Of a DNA stretch of 20,641 nucleotides, positions 1 to 18,157 are shown one piece after another. The notes below the pieces were generated by a model. That model made no database searches, was not told the origin of the DNA, and was given only the letters and a program-made list of their open reading frames with translations. Position numbers and translations under genes: made by a program. How positions within the stretch are numbered: position 1 is the first letter of the stretch; the number at the start of each line of letters is the position of its first letter. The stretch is from the IMG/VR virus record IMGVR_UViG_2537562190_000023; one strand, written 5' to 3'. This DNA is from a virus. Taxonomy: Duplodnaviria; Heunggongvirae; Uroviricota; Caudoviricetes.

Positions 1-306
1 TCCCGGTAGCTTTCCTTTGTAGGTTATCAACACATCCTGCGCCTCTAAAATTACGGGGCGATTTTCCGGCAACGGACCATCCCCTTCACATAACCCGGCA
101 GCAACATCCATGAAAAACTGCTTCGCCTGCTTTTTCGCCTCAGCTTCGTAAAACTCCAGCGTGGCACCTTCAGTACGGTCAAGACTAATCGCCACATCTG
201 GCAACAACAGTGACGGATACCCACCAATTTCCAGTGCCACAGTAACAGTAATCTTATCCGGGTAATTATTTATCCCTTTAACAACCAGTTCGTATTTTTT
301 CTTCAT
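1..306 (-). CDS. Hypothetical protein, N-terminal 102 codons only (gene runs off the window start); lies immediately downstream of the holin
   Basis: ATG at 306-304, 5 bp after the holin stop, with a GGGGAGAG-like SD upstream. Translation MKKKYELVVKGINNYPDKITVTVALEIGGYPSLLLPD is protein-like and open to coordinate 1. Not lysozyme-like; possibly a YdfR/DUF1327-type protein, which is a guess from position. Confidence 0.45.
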   Translation of the reverse strand, partial: MKKKYELVVKGINNYPDKITVTVALEIGGYPSLLLPDVAISLDRTEGATLEFYEAEAKKQAKQFFMDVAAGLCEGDGPLPENRPVILEAQDVLITYKGKLPG

Positions 307-310
307 CGCT

Positions 311-526
311 TTACTCTCCCCGCGCCGCCTTACGACGGTCCTCTCTGATTTTGAAATACAGGTTAGTCAGATATGTCAGCAGCCCAAACAGCAGACTCCC
401 CAGCACGCCTATTGCCGCCCACTGAGACGGAGAGACTTTGTCCAGCAGCTGCAGGAACCAGTAGCCCGTTCCCACCGCTGACGTGGTGTATGACACACCT
501 GTTGTGATTTTTTCCATCTGGTACAT
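311..526 (-). CDS. Phage holin, lambdoid S / EssQ-like, 71 aa
   Basis: 71 aa with two hydrophobic segments ([30 protein letters not shown]) and a charged C-terminal tail [13 protein letters not shown], the usual holin layout. Sequence matches my recollection of Stx-phage/Qin-type holins. Sits at the head of the lysis cassette, downstream of Q and nanS-p. Confidence 0.75.
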
Positions 527-601
527 ACCCCGTCTCTCGCAATCCGGAAGCTCACAACAACAGGAGGGGCATCAGCTCACACCGACAGCCCCTGCGCATG
601 G

Positions 602-871
602 TTACATCATCATTTCGCCGTCAGGCTGAGGCTCACTGCTACCGTCAGGCTGAGACACGACGCCATCTGAAACAGCACTGTCACCCGCGCCGTCTTCAGG
701 CTCAGGAGCAGCCGGTCCCCCCAGCAGCTCATCCAGAATGGCATCCACTTCAGCATCAAGACGCGCCTCAAGATTCTGGCGGAGTTGCTGTTTCAGTGCG
801 CTTCTGACTTCTTCAGAGCGCAGGACGTCCTTCACTGCTTCAGCAGTGACCAGAGATTTTATTTCTGACAT
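602..871 (-). CDS. Small acidic protein (about 89 aa) with a Pro/Asp/Gly/Ser-rich C-terminal tail; function unknown
   Basis: ATG at 871 gives MSEIKSLVTAEAVKDVLRSEEVRSALKQQLRQNLEARLDAEVDAILDELL followed by a low-complexity acidic tail. In-frame alternative starts exist at 982 (ATG) and 1027 (GTG), both of which would overlap the upstream gene. SD is weak. Confidence 0.4.
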   Translation of the reverse strand: MSEIKSLVTAEAVKDVLRSEEVRSALKQQLRQNLEARLDAEVDAILDELLGGPAAPEPEDGAGDSAVSDGVVSQPDGSSEPQPDGEMMM

Positions 872-908
872 GGGATTTTCTCGTTGAAAGGTGTTGTTAA
901 GAAAGTTG

Positions 909-1091
909 CTACGAAATGAGAGGCTCTTCGGGTTTTGTTCCGGCTGACTGGCTGGCGCTGATTTTTTCCGCCGCCGCGGCATCAATCTTTTTGCGTATAT
1001 AGTTCCGGATAACCTTATACCCGCCACTTACCAGATATAACGTGCACACCACCGTGCAGAAATACAATAAAATAAGCTGTACAAATCTCAT
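909..1091 (-). CDS. Small membrane protein (59 aa), function unknown
   Basis: ATG at 1091 preceded by a strong SD (GGGAGGG, 4 nt spacer). N-terminal hydrophobic segment FVQLILLYFCTVVCTLYLV followed by a basic, hydrophilic tail. Confidence 0.5.
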   Translation of the reverse strand: MRFVQLILLYFCTVVCTLYLVSGGYKVIRNYIRKKIDAAAAEKISASQSAGTKPEEPLIS

Positions 1092-1238
1092 TATCCCTCC
1101 CGGTTATTGATATGGTGTTGACATCGTTAATACCTGTTGGTTAAAAAAGTGTCCTGCATGTTTTGCTTTGGATATAACGACATTTGCCGCCGGTTCTGGC
1201 TCCTTGTTTTCCCTGCCCCGGCGGCCTTTTTTTCCTGC

Positions 1239-3176
1239 TTACGGGTTATTCACTTCCACTGTTATACTTTCAATCAGCACCGGATATGTCGCACCGCTAG
1301 TGATATCGGTCACGCGCAATTTGTCTGCCGTAAACGTGCCGACCGGTGACTGTGACAGCATGAACGGCGTCCCGTCCTTACCATCAATGACCGGCGTCAC
1401 CTCAATACTGTTGTTACCGGCAAAACGGAAGCCCAGCGTATGCCATTCGTTATCAAATGCGCCGAATGACCCCAGCTTCGTGTTCTGACCAGCATTTCCC
1501 TTGTGGTACATCACATTAAGGTCTGTGGCATCGCTCTGTACGTAAAACGACGCCAGCAGGTTATGACCGGCATTACCTTCCAGTGTGACGCCCTGAGGCA
1601 GTGAAGAAACCGGCCAGTACAGCGCCAGTGCGTACTGATTAGCTGTCAGTGTGCCATCAACTTTAAAACGACAACTGATAAGCCCGCCCTTCTCCAGCAG
1701 GTCTGCGCCATTACCGGCATCATGCTGCATAAACCACGAGGAACTTCCTGTCTGTTTGGTCCACCTCAGCGCCTTACCTCCTGCAGCACCTGCATCATCA
1801 ACTACCAATGCACGCCCTCCTTCAGCTCCCCATCCCTGCGGATTCAGTAAACCACCTGACTCTGTTGCACGGTAATAAAGCAGCGTTGTCACTGATTTCC
1901 CGTCCGTTGACGGTGTTGATGGTGTGTCCGGTGACGGCTTCTCATCCGGCGGCATCACAACCTGTTCCCCACCCTCCAGTTCAGCCGTCCGTCCTGCATG
2001 GAGAAGAATCGCTGAGGCAAGACGGTCAGAAATAATCCCCCTGCGTGCCCATGAGCTGAAATGGCTCGCACGGTCTGCTGACGTCCAGTTTGCCGACGTC
2101 CGGGAGGCCGCACCGTAATATCCTGATGCCGGAATATCCGGGTCTTCTTCCGGTTTGTTCGTCGGGACATTTGCTCCGTTCTCATCGGTCATGAACGGCA
2201 CAAAGTGAATATTCTTTTCCGTTTTGTTTTTGTAACTGCCGTACACCGTCTGGTAAGTGGATTCGCTCTTCTGCTTCCAGAAATAAGTTGTGTCTCCACA
2301 TATCCAGGGAACACCGTCAGCAGAACCACCAGCGCACTGTCCCACCATATCTGCAAGGTCCGTACGATATTGTTCCACTACTTCTGTAAAACGGGCTGTG
2401 TGATTTGCTGGCGTTCCGTCAAAGTCAAATTCCCCCTGCATCCACACCACGGCAAGCAGCACATTTTTCGGGTTCTTTGCCAGCGCGGCTTTTGTACGAC
2501 CGATGAGATCCTTATACAGCGGCCTGCCCACACCCCAGCGGGTAGAACTCTCTGAGGCACCGGTCACGTCACTGTATGTTCCATCTGCCCCGGTGGTGAA
2601 AGCTGAACCACCACGGCAGCACGGAACCAGAAGAATACCCGCATTCGCCGGTATAAACGGCAGCAGCTTTTTGGCAATATGCAGCCCCTGCCCCACGGTT
2701 CCGTACTGACCTTTCGACAGGTCAGCTTTCGGATGGTTAAGACGGCTCATGTCCTGTACATCATGCAGACAGTGGTCTGCCGGAATAATGTCGTTATATT
2801 TACAGGGAGCGCCATCCGGCGTCACTGTGCTGCGACGAGCCAGTTGCTTTATACGCGGGTCAGGACGGTCATATGTCTGCGGCAGAGGAAGCCCCTCACC
2901 GTAAGCCATGCCGTTCGACTGCCCGGCCAGTGGAATAACGTAGTAATAATCTGGCTCCGTGGTGACCACTCCCGGATAGCCACCATCCCCCGTGCCGGGC
3001 ACAACCACTGGCGTGGTCACATCCCCCTCCGCGGCAATCGCCTGCATCAGGGTATAAGGGGTTATGGCCACCGGACTACCAAACGGCTGCCAGCCCTCTT
3101 TCAGTTTGTGTGTCAGCTTTTCCGCAAGATCTGACGGCGACGCCGCCCTGACAACATCATAATGTTTAATCGACAT
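1239..3176 (-). CDS. nanS: Prophage sialate O-acetylesterase of the NanS-p type (DUF1737 N-terminus, SGNH/SASA esterase core, C-terminal lectin-like domain), 645 aa
   Basis: Long ORF with ATG at 3176 and SD GGGAGAAA. N-terminus MSIKHYDVVRAASPSDLAEKLTHKLKEGWQPFG is DUF1737-like. The esterase motif PLAGQSNGMAYGEG (GQSN block) is present. Size and position (downstream of Q, upstream of holin) match the NanS-p esterases of Stx and related lambdoid phages. Confidence 0.8.
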   Translation of the reverse strand: MSIKHYDVVRAASPSDLAEKLTHKLKEGWQPFGSPVAITPYTLMQAIAAEGDVTTPVVVPGTGDGGYPGVVTTEPDYYYVIPLAGQSNGMAYGEGLPLPQTYDRPDPRIKQLARRSTVTPDGAPCKYNDIIPADHCLHDVQDMSRLNHPKADLSKGQYGTVGQGLHIAKKLLPFIPANAGILLVPCCRGGSAFTTGADGTYSDVTGASESSTRWGVGRPLYKDLIGRTKAALAKNPKNVLLAVVWMQGEFDFDGTPANHTARFTEVVEQYRTDLADMVGQCAGGSADGVPWICGDTTYFWKQKSESTYQTVYGSYKNKTEKNIHFVPFMTDENGANVPTNKPEEDPDIPASGYYGAASRTSANWTSADRASHFSSWARRGIISDRLASAILLHAGRTAELEGGEQVVMPPDEKPSPDTPSTPSTDGKSVTTLLYYRATESGGLLNPQGWGAEGGRALVVDDAGAAGGKALRWTKQTGSSSWFMQHDAGNGADLLEKGGLISCRFKVDGTLTANQYALALYWPVSSLPQGVTLEGNAGHNLLASFYVQSDATDLNVMYHKGNAGQNTKLGSFGAFDNEWHTLGFRFAGNNSIEVTPVIDGKDGTPFMLSQSPVGTFTADKLRVTDITSGATYPVLIESITVEVNNP

Positions 3177-3262
3177 CGAATTTCTCCCGTGTACAGGAAC
3201 AGAGTTAAAAAGCCGGAACCGGAATCAAATCACAGGATGACCATCTGCCAGTGGCTGGTCGT

Positions 3263-3291
3263 AAAAAAAAGGCCGCGCCATGCGCAGCCGG
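3263..3291 (-). terminator. Rho-independent terminator (minus strand) about 90 bp upstream of nanS-p
   Basis: GC-rich hairpin GGCTGCGC/GCGCGGCC (8 bp with one G-U pair) at 3271-3291, followed on the minus strand by a U8 run (plus-strand A8 at 3263-3270). Confidence 0.45.
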
Positions 3292-3653
3292 AAATAAAGG
3301 GATAACGATGATAGTTTGAGAAAAACAGAAATAACACTTTTGTGGCAAAGCATGGTGCCGGGTGCCTCCCGGTGAATTCAGTACCAGCACCTGAATCCGC
3401 GATTATCCCATATACCTGGTTGCTGATTGCCCCTCCGCACAGGGGGATTCACCATGCAGTAGTATTTTTAATAAACAGTAAACAAAAAAATCAAGCATTA
3501 TGCAGGCTGTTTCTTTTTATCACCGGCCACAGCAATACCACAATGCCGCAGACCAGCCCCCATCCGCCAGCACCGACATGATTCTGCTGGTGAAATCCAC
3601 CATCACCACCAGAAACAGCAGGAGTGCAGCCACAGCCAGGCGCAGTTTTACCG

Positions 3654-4046
3654 TCACAGGTGATTCTCCAGACGAAGCCCCAGAACACCGGCAATCTCTT
3701 CCAGCACCTTGCGCTCTTCCGGCTCAATTTCGCCGTCTGCCTCCGCAATGGCCACCGCCACATCCAGCACATCTTCCGCTTCACGCGTATCGCGTTTCAC
3801 ATCCTCGATCTCACGTAACGCCGCACGACGACCAATTTTAAAGTTCGTATCCAGCTGACCGATAATGGTTGCGCTAATCGCATTAATTTCTGACGTAAAC
3901 GCGGACAGCGCTGGCTGATTACGCAGTACCTGTTCGATCTTCGCTTTCTAGGAAGCCTCACATTCACCATTTGCACAGGCCACCAGGTATGCGGCGTTAA
4001 TCACCGCCTGTGCCAGATCGCGTTTCTCAAACTTTCCTTTTTCCGG
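3654..4046 (-). pseudogene. TerB-like domain ORF with no start codon and an in-frame amber stop; probable pseudogene
   Basis: Minus-strand frame reads ...KRDLAQAVINAAYLVACANGECEAS*KAKIEQVLRNQPALSAFTSEINAISATIIGQLDTNFKIGRRAALREIEDVKRDTREAEDVLDVAVAIAEADGEIEPEERKVLEEIAGVLGLRLENHL. The TAG is at 3948-3950. No ATG/GTG/TTG lies between the upstream stop (4047-4049) and the TAG. The C-terminal DGEI...EE...L..IA..LGL pattern resembles TerB/DjlA-N-type domains (from memory). Confidence 0.4.
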
Positions 4047-4147
4047 TTAACGTGACACACCAATAACTCTTGTCGAAAAAGCCAGCAAGCTGAAAGACCG
4101 GTATTCACAACCACCAGCGCGTTTACTGTACTGGCGTGATTTCAGTC

Positions 4148-4173
4148 ATAAAAAAACCCGCCTGGCGACGGGT
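4148..4173 (-). terminator. tR'-like rho-independent terminator about 80 bp downstream of the Q-like gene
   Basis: Minus-strand RNA forms CCCGUC-GCCA-GGCGGG (6-bp stem, tetraloop) followed by U7 (plus-strand A-run 4149-4155). Confidence 0.5.
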
Positions 4174-4220
4174 GTAAAAAATCTTCTAACGTCAGGCATA
4201 AAACGCCCATCGTTAGGGCA

Positions 4221-4248
4221 AATTTACCACAGATTCGGGAAAAATCAA
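4221..4248 (-). promoter_or_regulatory. Candidate late promoter (pR'-like) immediately downstream of the Q-like gene
   Basis: Minus-strand TTGATT (-35, plus 4243-4248), 16-bp spacer, TAAATT (-10, plus 4221-4226). Together with the terminator at 4148-4173 it would give a transcript of about 65 nt, analogous to the lambda pR'/6S RNA/tR' unit. Confidence 0.35.
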
Positions 4249-4253
4249 CAAAG

Positions 4254-5075
4254 CTATCTGGTCACCTTTTTCAGTTGTTGTTCTGCCCATGCTTCTTCAA
4301 TATCAAACTGCACCACCAGCGTATCGTAAAAACGTTTAACTGTTTTTTTCCATGTATCAAGAGATATGGCATCGGTTACATTACATATGGCATTAAATGC
4401 CTCCGTTGAAGGTAATCTTTCATAGCCACGACCACCACAACGCTGGCAGTCTCTGATAACAGGCATACCACGTTTTACCGACTCTTCACGATGAATGGCA
4501 ACACCGCGCCCACGACAATCTTTACAGGCGGTGGAAACCTCCCCCTTCCCTCCACACTCCGGACAGGCAACTTTTACCACCTCCCTGACTTTTTTCCATT
4601 CCTCCCAGTAAGACGGATACACGCCTTTTGTGCACTTTGCCCACACTGGCGGCTTACCATCCGGATACTGGATCTTGTTTGTAAAAACCTCGCTTTCAAT
4701 AAATTTTTTTCCGTGACAACAGGGGCACTGTTTTTTGCTCGCCGCGCTACGGGCATAATCTTCAAACGCATACGAAGCCATAATACGCATCACTGCCGGT
4801 TTTATTTCTGCCGGGAGTTTTCTTAACGCCGCCACGCGATCACACCGACTGAGTGCATATTCTGTCAGCAATTCTGTTGCCCGCTCTCTGTCATTCATAC
4901 TAATGCCCATTTTCCCAAGGAACGCAGAAAACCCCATCTCAGCCCAATTCTGTGTCATGCCCTGCGCGGCCATCACATCAGTGATACTCAGCGTATCTTT
5001 CGACGTTGAGGCCGATGCATCAGTCAGGCCGGGGGATTTTGGGGAGTAGTATTTCGGTAAATCTTCCAGTTTCAT
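4254..5075 (-). CDS. Late-gene antitermination protein Q-like (large, zinc-finger-containing type), 273 aa
   Basis: ATG at 5075 overlaps the rusA stop (ATGA). Contains CxxC clusters (CPCCHGKK, CPECGGKG, CKDCRGRG, CQRCGGRG). Position directly after rusA and directly before a promoter/terminator pair and the lysis region matches Q of lambdoid phages (QuuQ / phage-82-like size class). The Q call rests mainly on position. Confidence 0.55.
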   Translation of the reverse strand: MKLEDLPKYYSPKSPGLTDASASTSKDTLSITDVMAAQGMTQNWAEMGFSAFLGKMGISMNDRERATELLTEYALSRCDRVAALRKLPAEIKPAVMRIMASYAFEDYARSAASKKQCPCCHGKKFIESEVFTNKIQYPDGKPPVWAKCTKGVYPSYWEEWKKVREVVKVACPECGGKGEVSTACKDCRGRGVAIHREESVKRGMPVIRDCQRCGGRGYERLPSTEAFNAICNVTDAISLDTWKKTVKRFYDTLVVQFDIEEAWAEQQLKKVTR

Positions 5076-5446
5076 TTTTTGACCTGCCCTTCAAGCATTA
5101 TGGGGTAAATCTTCACCCCCAGACGTCCACCAGATACTGGCTGAGCACGAACGATATTGATTTCATCAAACTGCTCATCGTCCATTAGCAACCCCGCATG
5201 CGTCAGCGCATCCAGCGGCGCTTTCAGAATATTGTCCAGGTCACGGCGGCGCTTATCCGGTGGCTCGGCAATAATCTTTATCGCCAGCCTTCCGGACAGG
5301 CTTAATTTCAGCCGCTGCTGGCGAACAATAAGCGCCACAGCCCGGCGATAACGCTCACCGGCTTTTGATACAAAATATGTGCTGCCACGACGTCGCCAGT
5401 AGGTGTTCACCGTCGGCAGGTAAAGCAAAACAAACTCTATACGCAT
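5072..5446 (-). CDS. rusA: Holliday-junction resolvase RusA
   Basis: 124 aa. Motifs RRRDLDN, LDALT.AG and GGRL, and overall similarity to E. coli RusA (YbcP) as recalled. Start ATG overlaps the upstream stop (TGATG). Confidence 0.8.
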   Translation of the reverse strand: MRIEFVLLYLPTVNTYWRRRGSTYFVSKAGERYRRAVALIVRQQRLKLSLSGRLAIKIIAEPPDKRRRDLDNILKAPLDALTHAGLLMDDEQFDEINIVRAQPVSGGRLGVKIYPIMLEGQVKK

Positions 5447-6507
5447 CAGTAACCTCTTTTACCCGAGCACGCCGGTTGCAAAGGCGTGATCAAGAAAACG
5501 AAAATTAAATCAACCTGGGAACCATGCTTTTCTTCGAACGCCAGCGGATCCGCATGAAGCTCGTTGTGATGCTCCCGACACAGCGGTAGCGTGAAAATAT
5601 CGTGGGATTTTGTTCCCATTCCGCCCTGACCATGACCAATCAGATGATGAGGATCGTCCGCTGGCTTACCACAACACGCACACGGCTGTGTCTTTACCCA
5701 GCGTGTGTATTTCTCATTTACCCAGCGGCGACGTTTAGGTCGTTTCATGAAGGATTCCGGAGACTCCGGATCAACGGCAATGCTGACCACCGTCTTTTCC
5801 TGTGGTGGGTTCTGTTGCTGGTGGGTGTGAGGCGGTAGCGCAATATTTTTTGTGCGCTGCTTCAGTATGCTGGTGGCGGTCTGCTCTCCCGGTACGATGT
5901 CGCTTTCGCGGTACAAGGAGCGGATTTTTTCCACACGTAACCCCAGAGAACGACGTAATACGGCCTCCGGTAGCGCGTCCGCCACCTGATTGCAGACCGC
6001 CCACCAGGATAATTCAGCCAGAGATAATTCACGCTCCTGCGTACCGCTTATTGCGTGACCGATGACGTCAATCATCCATGCTGACAGGTTTTGATGAGCA
6101 AGTTGCTCGAGTGATTCGGATGTCTGGTCCCGTAGCTGGTTGTCGCAGTGCCAGCACAACACCATTGCGCCGGTACCATAACGGTGAATGACAGTTTCGC
6201 TGTGGTGATAATCGCCGTGTGGCCACTGGCAGGATTTAATATGGCGCAACAGCCAGTCAGACAATGCACCAGCACCACCAGCAGCACGAATCACTCGTTC
6301 GTCGCTGAAAAATGGCAGCAATGTTTTGTCTTCCACCAGCGGCTGGCGAACGGCAGGAACGACCCCGGACGGCAGATTACGCATGCTTTTCGGTTCCGGC
6401 TCCACCAGTACCCGGGTATTGTGAAATACCTGCATGGATTCACGACCTGGCTTAAGGACCACCAGCCCGAGTTCCGGTACCAGAACAGGTCGAAGTAATA
6501 CCCGCAC
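5446..6507 (-). CDS. DUF968-type prophage protein (YdfU-like) with a C-terminal HNH-like Cys/His motif
   Basis: 353 aa. C-terminal region KRPKRRRWVNEKYTRWVKTQPCACCGKPADDPHHLIGHGQGGMGTKSHDIFTLPLCREHHNELH matches the DUF968/HNH-like pattern. Start lies 1 bp after the upstream stop. Confidence 0.6.
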   Translation of the reverse strand: MRVLLRPVLVPELGLVVLKPGRESMQVFHNTRVLVEPEPKSMRNLPSGVVPAVRQPLVEDKTLLPFFSDERVIRAAGGAGALSDWLLRHIKSCQWPHGDYHHSETVIHRYGTGAMVLCWHCDNQLRDQTSESLEQLAHQNLSAWMIDVIGHAISGTQERELSLAELSWWAVCNQVADALPEAVLRRSLGLRVEKIRSLYRESDIVPGEQTATSILKQRTKNIALPPHTHQQQNPPQEKTVVSIAVDPESPESFMKRPKRRRWVNEKYTRWVKTQPCACCGKPADDPHHLIGHGQGGMGTKSHDIFTLPLCREHHNELHADPLAFEEKHGSQVDLIFVFLITPLQPACSGKRGY

Positions 6508-6508
6508 G

Positions 6509-6787
6509 TTACCTCCAGATCCGTTGCTGGAATGTGCGGGACGGACGCGGTGGGCGTTCGGAGTAAGGAAGCCTGACGGAGATTATCCAGTGACGATAAT
6601 CGAGGCTGAGGGCTTTCCTAAACTCATACCCACGTCTGCGGTAGTTCTGAATCAGCCATTCGGCCTGTTCTTCAGTGCATGGGTCGTGCCGGAACCAGTC
6701 AGATTTGAATGCATGAGAACGCCGCCCGTGCCTGCTGGCAAAGACGGCTGAATTATCAGAATTGTGTAGTCTGGAATTTTGCGCCAT
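6509..6787 (-). CDS. Hypothetical protein, 92 aa
   Basis: ATG at 6787 with SD GGAGAAAG. It is the first gene of a tightly coupled run (this ORF, DUF968, rusA, Q). Confidence 0.45.
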   Translation of the reverse strand: MAQNSRLHNSDNSAVFASRHGRRSHAFKSDWFRHDPCTEEQAEWLIQNYRRRGYEFRKALSLDYRHWIISVRLPYSERPPRPSRTFQQRIWR

Positions 6788-6853
6788 CGGCTTTCTCCGG
6801 TGGCACAGTGTTACTCAACAGGGGTTCAGCCCTGCGCTGAATTGTAGATGAAT

Positions 6854-7114
6854 TCACTCATCTTCAAAAGCAGAAAAACCAGCCTTAATCCCAGCGTCTT
6901 TCAGAGACGGCAACGATGTGACAAATTCATTTGCACGCAAAATAAAACCATCCGTCACAAGCCCATCCACAAAATGAATTAACGCAGCTCCACTCTTCCT
7001 TTGTTGAGACTGTAAACATTTAATACGGCAGTGGCTGACAATAGCGCCATTCTCAACGCGCACAGTATAGAGGCCATCTTCACTAAAAATTTCACGTAAT
7101 TCTTCGATTTTCAT
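6854..7114 (-). CDS. Hypothetical protein, 86 aa (position matches rem of Qin-type prophages)
   Basis: ATG at 7114 (MKIEELREIF...) with SD GGAAGGA. Lies between the hok locus and the DUF968 gene, as in the hokD-rem-ydfU order of Qin as I recall it. Confidence 0.5.
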   Translation of the reverse strand: MKIEELREIFSEDGLYTVRVENGAIVSHCRIKCLQSQQRKSGAALIHFVDGLVTDGFILRANEFVTSLPSLKDAGIKAGFSAFEDE

Positions 7115-7230
7115 CAACAGAATCCTTCCAGATAAATAGCACTCCCCTGTTCGGGGTCCATCCCTCTTCTCCCTGCGCGCTACTTAAGTATTTTTGATTC
7201 TATTCCGGCGCCGTCCGGAACTTCAAACGC

Positions 7231-7266
7231 GTTGAAAATAAAAACAAAAACCCGCCGAAGCGGGTT
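7231..7266 (-). terminator. Rho-independent terminator at the 3' end of the hok mRNA
   Basis: Minus-strand hairpin AACCCGC-UUCG-GCGGGUU (7-bp stem, plus 7249-7266) followed by UUUUUGUUUUUAUUUU (plus-strand A-run 7231-7248). Confidence 0.55.
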
Positions 7267-7334
7267 AAGTGCGGGTGCGTTGAGGATGCCTGACACATCA
7301 GAGGTGGCGAGGGATTTCTCCCCCGCCTGGTCTC

Positions 7335-7490
7335 TTACTCCTCAGGTTCGTAAGCTGTGAAGACAGCGACCTCCGTCTGGCCGGTTCGGATTCGTACCTC
7401 GCAGAGGTCTTTCCTCGTTACCAGTGCCGTCACTATGACGGTTAAACAGATGACGATCAGGGCGATTAACATCGCCTTTTGCTGCTTCAT
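7335..7490 (-). CDS. hok: Hok/Gef-family type I toxin, 51 aa; an in-frame upstream extension to 7547 forms a mok-like leader ORF
   Basis: MKQQKAMLIALIVICLTVIVTALVTRKDLCEVRIRTGQTEVAVFTAYEPEE is a canonical Hok/RelF-type sequence (single TM helix, conserved Cys, acidic C-terminus). The 70-codon ORF 7335-7547 starts at ATG 7547. Confidence 0.85.
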   Translation of the reverse strand: MKQQKAMLIALIVICLTVIVTALVTRKDLCEVRIRTGQTEVAVFTAYEPEE

Positions 7491-7534
7491 AGCCTGCTTC
7501 TCCTTGACCTTTCGGTCCGTAAGAGGCAATCTAT

Positions 7535-7590
7535 ATGTGACGAGCATATAGGGGCCTCACTTCGATTTATAGTCGGGTGGGGCTTTTATC
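7535..7590 (+). ncRNA. Predicted Sok-like antisense RNA overlapping the mok translation-initiation region
   Basis: Plus-strand TTGACC at 7504-7509 could serve as a -35. A possible terminator hairpin (CCUCAC/GUGGGG with one G-U pair, 7556-7582) is followed by CUUUUAUC. The region is antisense to the mok start at 7547. Boundaries are approximate. Confidence 0.3.
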
Positions 7591-7792
7591 TATCTGCCGT
7601 TGGTGTTCATGCCCGAGGCAGATAGCCTCAAGCACCCGCAGCAATTCTACTTAACTCTGCCGTTACAGCAAGCCGTTTTCGTCCGATATGGGAATTCCCA
7701 TATCGGAATGAATTCAGTTCACCTGGCGAGGCTTAGCGTACAATTTTTTCCGTTTTGTGAGCTGCCCCTACATGCCGCTGGCGCGGCATCCG

Positions 7793-7828: not shown

Positions 7829-8587
7829 TCAAGTGCCTTTCCTGGTCCAGCCATATTTTTTGAATGCAGGCGCCGCTTCATCGGTTTGTAGCCATTCTGC
7901 AAATCGACGGGTTTCATCATTTGCATCCTGACGTACTGTAATGTTCATATCACGCCATATCACGTAGTCTGGCGCTATTTCCACGACATCACCAATTTCT
8001 GGATTACTGGCTGCCCAGTCAGCCCAGGTTATCCAGACATCTGCTTCAGGCTGATTCTCAAGAGCCTTACGTGCAGTTCCGCTATTGGGCGCATATAAAA
8101 TAATATTTTTTCGGATTGCGGCGACAGTTTCTATATTCCCTTTACGTCCGGCAATATCTTCCCAGACGCCAGTGCCTGATGTATTACTGGTACCACCACC
8201 ATCATTAACAATTACGCCAATCCCGGGTCTGGTCAGGTCGTCAATACTCCGGATATTTTTAGGATTACCTTTCTTTACCAGTAAAATACTTTTTCGCAGA
8301 TAAAGAGGCTGAATATCTTTTTCACTGAAGCTGTCTTTATGGTCCCGAATGATAGCCAGAGCAGATTGTTCTGATGCGCCAAACAAGATATCTGCATTTT
8401 TTTTGGCATCTTCATTCCATTTGTTCTGTGGGCCGTAATGAACGTTCACTATAATACCTGTTTTTTCGGCATAAAGTTTGGCTGCATCAAGCAAGGCTGT
8501 ATGCGGGCCACCAGGACCATACAGATTGATATCAGCATAAGCAGCAGAAGACAGGAATATTAAAAAACCTGCCATTATGTTCCTCAT
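7829..8587 (-). CDS. Periplasmic substrate-binding protein of the ModA/AcfC-like family, with signal peptide; orphan (no permease or ATPase partner in the window)
   Basis: 252 aa. N-terminal signal peptide MRNIMAGFLIFLSSAAYA. Sequence pattern fits ModA/TupA/AcfC-type binding proteins as recalled. Strong SD AAAAGGAG. The flanks are visibly AT-rich. Confidence 0.7.
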   Translation of the reverse strand: MRNIMAGFLIFLSSAAYADINLYGPGGPHTALLDAAKLYAEKTGIIVNVHYGPQNKWNEDAKKNADILFGASEQSALAIIRDHKDSFSEKDIQPLYLRKSILLVKKGNPKNIRSIDDLTRPGIGVIVNDGGGTSNTSGTGVWEDIAGRKGNIETVAAIRKNIILYAPNSGTARKALENQPEADVWITWADWAASNPEIGDVVEIAPDYVIWRDMNITVRQDANDETRRFAEWLQTDEAAPAFKKYGWTRKGT

Positions 8588-13762: not shown

Positions 13763-13809
13763 CACGTTCTTTAAAAATCTGGATAGTCCCAACTTATTTA
13801 AACGGTTAA

Positions 13810-14154
13810 TTATCTTGAGTTCATCCAGAACTTATTATTGCAAGCGGGGCAAAAAGTACGAAAATGAGCATCAAAGCGCATTATTTCCATTGGTTGCAGT
13901 ACAGATATTACCTTTTTTCCAAAACATTGTGGGCAAAGATGCACTGTTATCTCGGTATCGCCTATAAATTGCTTCTTGGAATACACAAGAGTTCCAGAAT
14001 CAAGCTTGTTAAGTTTGTAACCTTCCGCCTGTTGCTGAAAGTCTTCTATCTCTGCAATTTTTGCTTTGAGAGATGCGGCTTCTTCCTGATAAGAGCGCAC
14101 CATCTCAATGAGCGATACGCATTCAAACTGAACAGACGTAAGTTTTGAAAGCAT
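13810..14154 (-). CDS. Antisense-oriented zinc-ribbon protein, 114 aa (coiled-coil N-terminus, CPQC-x22-CPAC)
   Basis: Protein-like composition with a predicted coiled coil (EEAASLKAKIAEIEDFQQQAEGY) and a C4 zinc ribbon. Lies on the strand opposite to the surrounding early operon, in an AT-rich stretch. No obvious SD before the ATG at 14154. Confidence 0.55.
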   Translation of the reverse strand: MLSKLTSVQFECVSLIEMVRSYQEEAASLKAKIAEIEDFQQQAEGYKLNKLDSGTLVYSKKQFIGDTEITVHLCPQCFGKKVISVLQPMEIMRFDAHFRTFCPACNNKFWMNSR

Positions 14155-14324: not shown

Positions 14325-14806
14325 AATAACAGGAACCACCTCGCCTGACGTGGTTAAAAGCAGGCACACAACGCGAAAGCGTACGGCGAGGTAGCTGGTT
14401 CATAGATAGCCTGTCGTTAAATTTTCGTCGACCGTGCGCTTCCGGTTGTGGCAGTCCGCGAAATGGCGCGGCGGTAAGTATGGCTGGGGTTTCCTCCATT
14501 GCTCCAGAAAATGCACCGGGTTGTCAGGTTGACCATACGCTTAAGTGACAACCCCGCTACAACGCCCTCTGTTATCAATTTTCTGGTGACATTTGGCGGT
14601 ATCAGTTTTACTCCGTGACTGCTCTGCCGCCCTTTTTAAAGTGAATTTTGTGATGCGGTGAATGCGGCTAAGCGCACGCGGAACAGTTAAAACCAAAAAC
14701 AGTGTTATGGGTGGATTCTCTGTATCCGGCGTTAATTGTTAACTGGTTAACGTCACCTGGAGGCACCAGGCACTGCATCACAAAATTCATTGTTGAGGAC
14801 GCGATA

Positions 14807-15272: not shown

Positions 15273-16874
15273 ATGAACGCTGATAAAGAAGAAATTGCAC
15301 TATATTACGAAGCCAAAAATGACAAAGTCAGAAAACGCCTTGGGATTAAAGGTGGTTTTTACTGGCGCACAGCAAAAAAATTATCGGTTGCAATATCACG
15401 TGGTGTTGCTGCAATGGACGATGCCGGATTTGACGAAGAGGATTTTAAAAAACCCATCCGCGTCCATTTACCCGTTGTGAATGACCTTCCACCGGAAGGT
15501 GTGTTTGATACTGAATTCTGCAACCGATACGAAAAAGGCGGAGAAGATGGTATCACAATGATACTTATCGCGCCCTCTGTTCCGGACAAACCAGCCAGTA
15601 CTGACAATACCAACGTCAACGGCGAAGACATGGCTAAGATTGAGGAGAATATGCTTCTTCCGGTTTCAGGTCAGATTCTGCCTGTTCGCTGGCTGGCGCA
15701 ACACAACAGCGAAAAACCGCTCACGCACGTTTCACTGGACAAACTGCGCGCATTACATAACGCACAGGATGAAAAACTTCCCGCCGTTACCGCGCTGGCC
15801 ATCTCAAATAAAGCAGTGCAACTCGAACCGCTGGAGCTTCGGGATTTGTACAAACTGGTGCGAGACACTGACAAAGTTTTCCCCGCCCCCGTAAATTCGG
15901 ACCTGGGACTGATGACCTCTTTTATCGAAGCATACCTGGGCGCTGACTACACCGATCGCGGTCTGCTTACAAAAGAGTGGATGAAAGGAAATCGTGTTTC
16001 ACGCATCAGCCGCACGCCATCCGGCGCTAACGCTGGCGGCGGCATTCTTACCGATCGCGGCGAAGGTTTTGTCCACGATGATGCGTCAGTGGCGCGTGAC
16101 GTAGCCACTGGCGTACTGGCCCGTTCAATGGACGTGGATATTTATAACCTTCATCCCGCGCACGCTAAACGCATTGAGGAAATTATCGCTGAAAATAAAC
16201 CGCCATTTTCTGTGTTTTTCAGCAAATTCATCACCATGCCGGGCCACAAGGATTACTCCCGCGCCATCGTGGTTGCGTCCGTGAAAGAAGCACCAATTGG
16301 TATAGAGGCTACTCCCCACCGTGTCACCGAATACCTGAATAAGGTGCTGACTGAAACCGATCATGCCACCCCTGATCCGGAAATCGTGGATATTGCCTGT
16401 GGTCGCTCCTCTGCCCCGATGCCGCAGCGTGTAACAAAAGAAGGAAAACAGGATGATGAAGAAAAACCGCAGCCATCTGGCGCAATGGCAGATGAACAGG
16501 CAACGACTGAAGCAGTGGAACCGGATACAACTGAACATAATCAGGACACGCAGTCGATGGATGCTCAGCCACAGATAAATTCTGTTGATGCGAAATATCA
16601 GAAACTGCGTGCAGAACTCCATGAAGCCAAGAAAAACATTCCACCCAAAAATCCTGTCGATGCAGATAAATTACTGGCTGCTTCTCGAGGAGAATTTGTT
16701 GAAGGGATTAGCGACCCGAATGATCCAAAATGGGTGAAGGGGATCCAGAGTCGCGATGATGATGACCAGAATCAGGATAAAGCGGAACAAAACAGCCCAA
16801 ATGCGTTACAAAACGAGCCAAAAACAAAACAACCTGAACCGCCCCGGGTTTCCTGGAGAGTGTTTTATCTGTGA
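15273..16874 (+). pseudogene. RecE-like protein, N-terminal fragment truncated by IS629 insertion (last 13 codons and stop are IS-derived)
   Basis: ATG at 15273 with SD GAGG. Long stretches resemble the N-terminal region of Rac RecE as recalled (for example [80 protein letters not shown]). The frame enters the IS at 16835 and stops at 16872-16874. Confidence 0.8.
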
Positions 16875-16876
16875 AC

Positions 16877-17764
16877 TCAGGCTGCCAGATCATCGTTTCC
16901 GATGGAAGCATAATAAGCTTTTTCTGCTTCTGCCGGGGGAGTATGGCCCAGCCTTTCCAGCAATCGTCGATTGTTATACCAGTCCACCCACGTGAGTGTG
17001 GCCAGTTCCACTTCTGCACGGTTTTTCCAGCTCTTACGGTGTATTACCTCCGCTTTGTAAAGACCATTGATGCTCTCCGCCATCGCGTTGTCATACGAGT
17101 CGCCAGTACTCCCTGTTGATGCCAGTAATCCGGCTTCCTTAAGCCGCTGCGTGTAGGCCAGCGATACATACTGAGAACCTTTATCACTGTGATGGATTGT
17201 GCCGGACGGCCGACGGGCCCACAACGCCTGCTCCAGTGCATCCAGCACGAATGTTGTTTCCATGGATGATGAGACCTGCCATCCCACGATGTATCCGGCG
17301 AACACATCAATGATGAACGCCACATAAACGAAGCCCTGCCATGTGCTTACCCAGGTAAAATCAGCCACCCACAACTGGTCTGGACGTTCTGCCACGAACT
17401 GACGGTTTACGCGGTCGCATGCGGCAACGGCTTTCCGGCTGACGGTAGTGCGGACCTTTTTACCCCGGAGAACACCGGCAAGTCCCATAACCGCCATGAG
17501 ACGTGCCACAGTGCATCTGGCCACTCTGATACCTTCCCGTAACAACTGACGCCAGACTTTACGCACACCGTATACCTTGTGATTTTCATCGTATACGCGC
17601 TGTATCTCTTTCTTCAGCCAGTCATCGCGCTGCGCACGGGCACTGCGTTTATCCGGATAATGTCGCTGTTGCTGACAGTGGTAATACGTTGACGGGGCAA
17701 TATGCAGTTCGCTGCATACCGGTCCGACCCCGTACTGCTCACGCAGCTTATCCAGCAGTGGCAT
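16877..17764 (-). CDS. IS629 transposase OrfB (DDE catalytic domain)
   Basis: 295 aa beginning [29 protein letters not shown] and ending ASIGNDDLAA, matching IS629 OrfB as recalled. ATG overlaps the orfA stop (TAATG). Confidence 0.9.
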   Translation of the reverse strand: MPLLDKLREQYGVGPVCSELHIAPSTYYHCQQQRHYPDKRSARAQRDDWLKKEIQRVYDENHKVYGVRKVWRQLLREGIRVARCTVARLMAVMGLAGVLRGKKVRTTVSRKAVAACDRVNRQFVAERPDQLWVADFTWVSTWQGFVYVAFIIDVFAGYIVGWQVSSSMETTFVLDALEQALWARRPSGTIHHSDKGSQYVSLAYTQRLKEAGLLASTGSTGDSYDNAMAESINGLYKAEVIHRKSWKNRAEVELATLTWVDWYNNRRLLERLGHTPPAEAEKAYYASIGNDDLAA

Positions 17765-18090
17765 TATTTTTTCCAGAGGCGGTCGAACTCCGCCTTCGCA
17801 AAATAAGCGGAAGCCTGGCGAAGGATATCGTTACTGCGGCGCAGTTCACGATTTTCACGTTCCAGCTCTTTCAGACGCTGACGTTCAGCGGTGGTGAGTC
17901 CACCATCACCACTCCCGGTATCCCGCTCATGCTGGCGAACCCAGACACGCAGAGTCTCCGGCGTACAGCCAATCTTTGGGGCAATGGAACAAATTGCCGC
18001 CCACTGTGAGTCATATTCATCCTGACTTTCCAGAACCATACGAATCGCCCGCTGACGGACTTCGGGGGAAAAACGAGTATTTTTAGTCAT
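17764..18090 (-). CDS. IS629 transposase OrfA (HTH / leucine-zipper part)
   Basis: 108 aa [59 protein letters not shown]..., matching IS629 OrfA as recalled. An A6 run sits at the orfA/orfB junction, where IS3-family -1 frameshifting occurs. Confidence 0.9.
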
Positions 18091-18157
18091 CCTGTTTACC
18101 TCTTTCTCAGGGAGTTTAGTCTCCAGGATTTCCGGGGCGGTTCAACCTGAACCAGTA

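Follow-up and report, generated by a model that had tools for sequence, protein, structure and literature searches.

The late regions of Shiga toxin (Stx)-converting phages are the closest described parallel to the locus considered here. In VT2-Sakai the order is Q, three transfer RNA (tRNA) genes, stx2AB, STnc100/AsxR, nanS-p, small open reading frames (ORFs), S and R. Reviews and a 2023 survey place nanS-p, the gene for a prophage sialate O-acetylesterase, in both Stx and non-Stx prophages, and the literature also describes the order STnc100/PasD, esterase, holin, as well as a mosaic interval from Q to S. PF03589-type Q genes are reported within 10 kb of most PasD small RNA (sRNA) genes, and the STnc100 element downstream of stx2 has been identified as the Hfq-binding EcOnc27, a relative of the PasD that lies beside the esterase gene. 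NanS-p alleles from prophages of EDL933 and O104:H4, some of them without stx, have been published as active esterases that support growth on Neu5,9Ac2. Here we analyse a stretch of viral DNA of 20,641 nucleotides (IMG/VR record IMGVR_UViG_2537562190_000023; hereafter the window), whose minus strand carries, in order, Q, a pR' promoter with its pause element, the terminator tR', a variable slot, nanS-p, DUF1378, DUF826 and a P21-type holin gene. This order rests on homology, not chance. The prophage is a defective lambdoid one of E. coli O103:H2, located where K-12 has Qin, and the region comprises its late-gene control and early-late module. We read it, at a probability of about 0.8, as a module in which a Q switch drives the genes from nanS-p to the holin, with a slot holding wrecked tciAB genes and with NanS-p intact.

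The setting is clear from chromosomal relatives. Several chromosomes of E. coli O103:H2 and related Shiga toxin-producing E. coli match window positions 1-7600 at 100% identity, and that of O103:H2 strain 12009 matches them at 99.9%; in 12009 the equivalent region (NC_013353.1, RefSeq annotation) is a lambdoid prophage flanked by ydfJ and rspB. The early part of the 12009 prophage comprises int, xis, exo, dicB, ydfA/C, cI/cro-like and O/P-like genes, paa, hokD, DUF968 (ydfU) and rusA. From Q onwards there follow a TerB pseudogene, a DUF3927 gene, a 'SASA family carbohydrate esterase', DUF1378, DUF826, the holin gene and a truncated ydfR, after which come an IS3 element and a few leftovers (nleG7 and a dinI-like gene). 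No endolysin, spanin, terminase, head or tail genes remain in the 12009 prophage annotation.

The Q protein is a clear member of the lambda-Q antiterminator family and is accompanied by a lambda-like pR', which upholds an earlier sequence-only reading of this DNA on this point. It is roughly 40% identical to lambda Q and aligns with the lambda Q structure (PDB 7UBM, also 7UBN; E 9e-41) in two blocks, residues 1-113 and 182-273, on either side of an insertion of about 68 residues (114-181; window 4535-4735, minus strand). CxxC motifs lie at residues 117, 171, 184 and 210. The last two, CKDC and CQRC, align with lambda CRDC and CGRC and so keep the cysteines of the lambda zinc ribbon; the insertion brings a second, zinc-ribbon-like pair (CPCC...CPEC). 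All matched Q structures (7UBM/7UBN, 4MO1 and 7UBJ-7UBL) align solely outside this insertion. Sequence comparison suggests that the long form of Q is common. The protein is 100% identical to quuQ of the Stx2a phage Stx2_EH1910, and the unit of Q plus pR' occurs in 2497 of 5426 complete E. coli genomes (about 46%), with up to four copies per genome. Full-length tblastn matches to the long form were also obtained in mEp237 and phi80.

Directly after the Q stop codon begins the -35 element of pR' (TTGATT, 4248-4243), followed by a 16-nt spacer and an extended -10 element (TGgTAAATT, hexamer 4226-4221). Beyond it lie TGCCCT and then AACGATGGG, with the predicted +1 at A4214. The window and lambda promoters have GGTAAATTTGnCnnAACGATGGG in common, and the -10 hexamer, the 6-nt discriminator, the +1 A and AACGAT are all conserved; in Stx2_EH1910 the promoter is identical. 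AACGAT in lambda is the sigma70-dependent pause signal at which Q loads, and we infer by analogy that the window element corresponds to that pause site. Upstream of the -10 element, in the place of the lambda Q-binding element, the sequence differs from that of lambda, which is expected because the two Q proteins are only about 40% identical. The tR' hairpin, about 40 nt past the predicted start, folds at -12.0 kcal/mol (z -3.2). The resulting short transcript is predicted to be about 65 nt long and to fold as a whole at -21.3 kcal/mol (z -2.75), and it would be the functional counterpart of lambda 6S RNA. We rejected this transcript as a homologue of StxS, found in the Sakai Stx phages: that RNA is made from another kind of pR', the Q933 type, with a length of 258 nt before processing to 74 nt, and the two are analogous, not homologous.

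Located between Q and the holin gene of the lambdoid prophage, nanS-p encodes a protein with an N-terminal DUF1737 (PF08410, E 3.3e-15), a SASA/SGNH catalytic domain and a C-terminal lectin-like DUF6645 (PF20350, E 7e-71). The catalytic domain aligns with the structure of E. coli NanS (3PT5) over 319 residues (E 2.5e-119), and the C-terminal 216 residues align with the solved NanS-p lectin-like domain (6YP6, E 9.5e-97). The assignment as an esterase stood up on this closer alignment: both motifs are present against 3PT5, with catalytic Ser87 (GQSN) and His372 (SHFSS) conserved at what we take to be the positions of NanS Ser19 and His301. The protein is predicted to have 9-O-acetyl sialate esterase activity. 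Its identity is 73% to the VT2-Sakai (933W-type) counterpart and 75% to that of Stx2_EH1910 (74-76% to Stx-phage alleles at the DNA level), and the protein differs from an O157:H7 allele by a single residue, or 2 of 1938 nt. Against three homologues, the ratio of non-synonymous to synonymous substitution rates (dN/dS) is 0.15-0.25; the family is under purifying selection. Read directly, the N-terminus contains no hydrophobic stretch resembling a signal peptide. Just after the nanS-p stop codon lies a stable hairpin, GGCCGCCGG...CCGGCGGC (about 1235-1190, within 1150-1238, minus strand; -26 kcal/mol, z -3.3); a preprint places the PasA/PasC sRNAs just after the esterase gene.

The sequence-only reading, which was framed on positions 1239-4253 and so left Q and the holin gene outside its coordinates, had claimed an Stx-phage-type late layout (Q, pR'/tR', NanS-p, small genes, holin) lacking both stx and tRNA genes. 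Homology of each part confirms the layout, and the absences also held. A tblastn search of the window with Stx2A and Stx2B, the only Stx queries used, gave a best E of 1.4, and the RefSeq annotation of the region contains no Stx family. ARAGORN found no tRNA genes in the whole window, nor did Rfam give a tRNA match. Transfer RNA genes upstream of stx are common in Stx-converting phages but not universal.

One part of that reading did not survive, namely that the slot holds only a pseudogene. The slot contains, besides the tciA pseudogene, a frameshifted tciB, an STnc100-family element and a strong terminator; it amounts to a pair of dead genes with a single RNA element that appears intact. The linker downstream of tR' (4147-4033), common to the phages Stx2_EH1910 and PPyecE_EH1910, is fused at the junction to about codon 18 of tciA. 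As a result tciA is without its start and some 17 codons, and it further carries a GAG-to-TAG nonsense codon at 3950-3948; RefSeq flags an 'internal stop'. In tciB, a 1-nt deletion in a run of G (3561-3557) yields 45 residues, against 54-55 in homologues, with the last 21 replaced. The run is one G shorter than in the O157:H7, PPyecE and Evi copies and is not conserved in JLK-2012, and RefSeq annotates the ORF as an intact DUF3927 protein. The junction, present in 457 of the 5426 complete genomes, is old and widespread.

The STnc100 element is better seen as part of a conserved nanS-p block than as slot cargo. It lies just upstream of nanS-p in VT2-Sakai (207.7 bits), Stx2_EH1910, PPyecE, JLK-2012 and the O157 strain F8952, and in phage Evi it immediately precedes the holin gene. 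Seven Stx and non-Stx phage sequences share its core (GCATGGTGAATCCCCCTGTGCGGAGGGGC...CACCGGGAGGCACCCGGCACCATGC) without variation, and likewise a promoter-like TTG...TTAAAA pattern before it (3484-3500, minus strand); the 3' end of the covariance model aligns poorly to the window element. The terminator that follows, 86 nt before the nanS-p start codon, folds at -15.4 kcal/mol (z -3.0) and is conserved in O157 F8952, Evi and JLK-2012. In PPyecE and VT2-Sakai, STnc100 is followed on the other strand by the anti-sRNAs AgvB and AsxR; neither was found in the window at the Rfam gathering score, an E-value search giving only weak, chance-level matches. Evi keeps only the first 25 nt or so of nanS-p (5368-5392 of the Evi stretch) before its holin region, which points to a deletion of nanS-p in that phage.

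Table 1. Features of the late region, with window coordinates and the basis of each assignment.
Feature	Position	Strand	Basis
Q late-gene antiterminator, 273 amino acids, lambda-Q family	4254-5075	-	Pfam PF03589, E 4.7e-50
pR'-like late promoter	4221-4248	-	Read from the sequence and alignment with lambda pR'
AACGAT, -10-like element in the initially transcribed region	4209-4214	-	Invariant in the lambda pR' alignment
tR' intrinsic terminator, 7-bp GC-rich stem and U7	4149-4173 (hairpin 4173-4156)	-	Terminator scan
Recombination or deletion junction	4033-4035		blastn breakpoints and junction alignment
tciA / TerB-family pseudogene	3654-4035	-	Translation against intact TciA of PPyecE_EH1910 and JLK-2012
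tciB / DUF3927 ORF, frameshifted	3520-3657	-	Comparison with four homologues
STnc100-family (PasD-related; EcOnc27-like) sRNA element	3317-3483	-	Rfam RF02076, 101.6 bits (gathering score 47)
Strong intrinsic terminator, 8-bp stem with 7 GC pairs, U8	3263-3289	-	Terminator scan
nanS-p, 645-amino-acid prophage sialate O-acetylesterase	1239-3176	-	Pfam and structure matches
DUF1378 small late gene, 60 amino acids	909-1091	-	Pfam PF07125, E 5.8e-40; equivalent place in Stx phages
DUF826 small late gene	602-871 (RefSeq start; mechanical ORF reaches 1027)	-	Pfam PF05696, E 4.4e-34
Class II (phage 21 S-type) holin, 71 amino acids	311-526	-	Pfam PF04971, E 3.6e-33; RefSeq
YdfR-family gene, 5' part	1-306	-	RefSeq NC_013353.1

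Taken as a switch, these parts would work as follows. Derepression of the early-right operon would yield lambda-family Q, which is encoded at its end. The constitutive, lambda-type pR' would fire and, without Q, transcription would end some 65 nt on at tR'. Q loading at the AACGAT pause would allow the polymerase to read through tR' and the STnc100 terminator, the two strong sense-strand terminators that stand between pR' and nanS-p, and this read-through would bring nanS-p, DUF1378, DUF826 and the holin gene into transcription. The interval between tR' and the STnc100-nanS-p block is a variable 'moron' slot, which in Stx phages holds tRNAs and stxAB. We infer Q control of nanS-p here from the anatomy of the locus, from lambda biology and from the published induction of other alleles, whose transcripts rise by 1-2.4 logs (10- to 250-fold) with mitomycin C. 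Q-dependent read-through, esterase activity of the window allele and any fitness benefit are likewise predictions.

Several points weigh against this account. A generic sigma70 promoter scan did not flag pR', because just 8 of 12 consensus positions match. If induced by itself, the 12009 remnant could neither bring about lysis nor package DNA, because IS3 truncates the lysis cassette and the endolysin, spanin and head genes are gone. With no lysis genes and no signal peptide, NanS-p would need lysis by a co-resident phage or some other route of release to reach its substrate. A homologue in phi24B has been assigned a structural role, in capsid decoration, and published work detects nanS-p transcripts without induction in almost every strain that was assayed. 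Such basal expression leaves room for a Q-independent promoter, and nanS-p might owe most of its transcription to a promoter of its own or to read-through from an STnc100 promoter, for which the TTG...TTAAAA pattern, conserved in 7 of 7 aligned sequences, is a candidate. Transcription from there would, however, meet the strong U8 terminator (-15.4 kcal/mol) between STnc100 and nanS-p, and the scan found no minus-strand promoter-like site anywhere in 200-4400, the 86 nt before the start codon included. The 10- to 250-fold response to mitomycin C also argues against an effectively Q-independent nanS-p, as does the published finding that z1466 is among the genes most strongly up-regulated after norfloxacin, and we regard this alternative as unlikely.

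The capsid-decoration result raises a different question, about what NanS-p is for. A 2026 preprint describes the phi24B homologue, gp84, as a processed protein present in virions, bound through DUF1737, which forms hexamers on the capsid hexons. Because of this, 'conversion cargo' may not be the only or primary role of NanS-p, and anchoring of DUF1737 to the capsid offers a second, structural reason for the place of nanS-p in the late operon. On the strongest version of this idea NanS-p is primarily a virion component, here a leftover structural gene whose present use would be in trans, on co-resident capsids or released by their lysis. The window DUF1737 is intact and near-identical to that of Stx2_EH1910 NanS-p, and nanS-p sits in the late operon of every comparator that has the gene. 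The virion role is nonetheless shown for one podovirus, in a preprint, and no capsid genes remain in the 12009 prophage. Nor is such a role exclusive, as published growth on Neu5,9Ac2 depends on nanS-p alleles, those of non-Stx prophages included. A primarily structural NanS-p is thus possible but doubtful. More speculative still is the proposal that the capsid-less remnant keeps nanS-p in the service of co-resident phages, which, when induced and carrying the same Q, would switch it on in trans and either release the protein by lysis or load it through DUF1737 onto their capsids. Such switching is conceivable because some Stx2a phages carry an identical Q and pR', a unit present in up to four copies per genome, but we give this proposal little credence.

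It had also been suggested that the element is an stx-free relative or derivative of an Stx phage. The first half of that description stands: the window is genuinely related to the late region of an Stx phage, because Stx2_EH1910 shares its Q, a block of DNA and the gene order. The second half is less likely. Descent from an Stx-converting phage, with the tRNA-stxAB block deleted just downstream of tR', would account for the 98.5% identity to Stx2_EH1910 across Q, pR', tR' and about 120 nt of linker, for the abrupt end of homology at 4033 with a visible deletion or recombination junction, and for the collinearity of the block from nanS-p to the holin gene with Stx phages. On the far side of the junction, however, lies the interior of tciA, not sequence known downstream of stx. 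DNA resembling tciAB was present in 35 phage records, with no Stx-converting phage among them, and a junction that joins the tR' linker to such cargo argues against a derivative. No stx-like coding remnant was seen (the best tblastn E being the 1.4 given above), and identity between nanS-p and the Stx-phage alleles is only 73-75% at the protein level and 74-76% at the DNA level. Another route is available in the non-Stx phage PPyecE_EH1910, which matches window positions 4177-4033 and then, 2.58 kb further on, 4035-3350; the intervening block, not in the window, comprises a hypothetical gene, a methylase, a toxin-antitoxin pair and the start of tciA. A single 2.58-kb deletion in a PPyecE-type arrangement would suffice to give the window junction, which favours an ancestor with tciAB cargo over one that lost stx. 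Such a deletion would have removed the 5' end of tciA together with the genes upstream of it, with the nonsense codon and the frameshift coming later. We therefore consider a lost stx improbable, and the element is best read, on sequence comparison, as a relative whose cargo was different and is now dead, rather than as an Stx phage minus stx.

The arrangement itself is already known, each component being in RefSeq and the layout in the literature. As a discovery it carries little weight, given the 100% identity to sequenced O103:H2 genomes and the occurrence of the Q-pR' unit in almost half of complete E. coli genomes. It serves better as a worked example, in which the stx position is one interchangeable moron slot that can hold stx, tciAB or cspB/cspF, and in which the combination of an Stx-phage-type Q with a late region lacking stx need not mark a former Stx phage. 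It also illustrates how a degraded prophage can retain an intact, conserved esterase gene while the adjoining cargo decays.

The remainder of the window adds several observations on the prophage backbone. In 12009, ydfR is cut by IS3 and no endolysin or spanin gene lies downstream, whereas O157 F8952 has an intact YdfR-lysozyme-Rz series; 61 nt of the ydfR fragment (window 41-101) recur as an exact repeat beyond the IS3 element of 12009 (positions 13783-13843 of the compared stretch). The window has an IS3-family element of its own, about 1.3 kb long (16841-18142), which interrupts the prophage exonuclease gene, is not at that position in 12009 and contains an ALIL pseudoknot (17693-17809, minus strand); it and the IS3 copy by which the 12009 lysis cassette is truncated share 94.6% identity. 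In the early-right region, paa, encoding the AcfC-family adhesin Paa (7829-8587, minus strand), sits in a patch of low GC content (0.35-0.43) beside a decayed fimbrial gene, and this patch looks like another moron-type insertion. The hokD/sok toxin-antitoxin pair (7335-7637, minus strand; Rfam sok, 103.9 bits) and the DicF sRNA with dicB (14581-14632, plus strand; 77 bits) are present as in K-12 Qin.

Compared with the lambda Q/pR'/tR' switch and its 6S RNA, the window has a Q homologue, keeps the -10 element, the discriminator, the +1 position and AACGAT, and has an intrinsic terminator downstream. It differs in the 68-residue insertion of Q with its extra zinc ribbon, in the sequence from -35 to -10 where the lambda Q-binding element lies, and in the length of the terminated transcript, which is about 65 nt here and 194 nt in lambda. 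The esterase has the same three-domain architecture, and the same Ser and His, as the NanS-p proteins of enterohaemorrhagic E. coli prophages (933W z1466 and phi24B gp84/vb_24B_21) and NanS (YjhS); relative to the 933W/Sakai type, at 73% identity, the linkers and the second half of DUF1737 diverge in the window protein. Similarity to VT2-Sakai DNA starts only at STnc100 and nanS-p, at about 76%.

Among Stx phages the nearest match is Stx2_EH1910 (LC567834.1, Stx2a-converting), and here the synteny comparison proposed with the original suggestion bore it out: the block of ydfU, rusA, Q, pR' and tR' is 98.5% identical in DNA, and the downstream order of STnc100, nanS-p, DUF1378, DUF826 and holin is the same. 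The identity ends 221 nt past Q, at the tciA junction. From there Stx2_EH1910 has a hypothetical gene, a DNA methylase gene, three tRNA genes, stx2AB and iraM in its slot (the order past stx2AB being STnc100, iraM and nanS-p), whereas the window has decayed tciAB; the phage also has a full lysis cassette, and its NanS-p, as noted, is 75% identical. The non-Stx phages JLK-2012, PPyecE_EH1910 and Evi share the order tciA-tciB-STnc100 in the corresponding slot, at 89-96% DNA identity, but their tciAB genes are intact and are preceded by tRNA genes (JLK-2012 and Evi) or by a methylase gene and a toxin-antitoxin pair (PPyecE). JLK-2012 and PPyecE have other Q types, and Evi has the Q type of the window.

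Finally, two chromosomal prophages frame the locus. A non-Stx lambdoid prophage of O157:H7 strain F8952 (NZ_CP038349.1, at 3.10 Mb) is 97.7% identical over 6.8 kb and shares both the junction and the tciA nonsense codon, but its tciB is not frameshifted, its YdfR-lysozyme-Ant-Rz cassette is complete and its early region carries other genes. The cryptic prophage Qin of K-12 occupies the same ydfJ...rspB site and has the dicA/dicC/dicF/dicB genes, hokD and ydfU, together with the backbone of Q (ydfT/quuQ), an essQ-type holin and ydfR. It differs in lacking the rusA and paa found here and in its 250-residue Q, and between Q and the holin gene, where the window has nanS-p, Qin has cspB and cspF.

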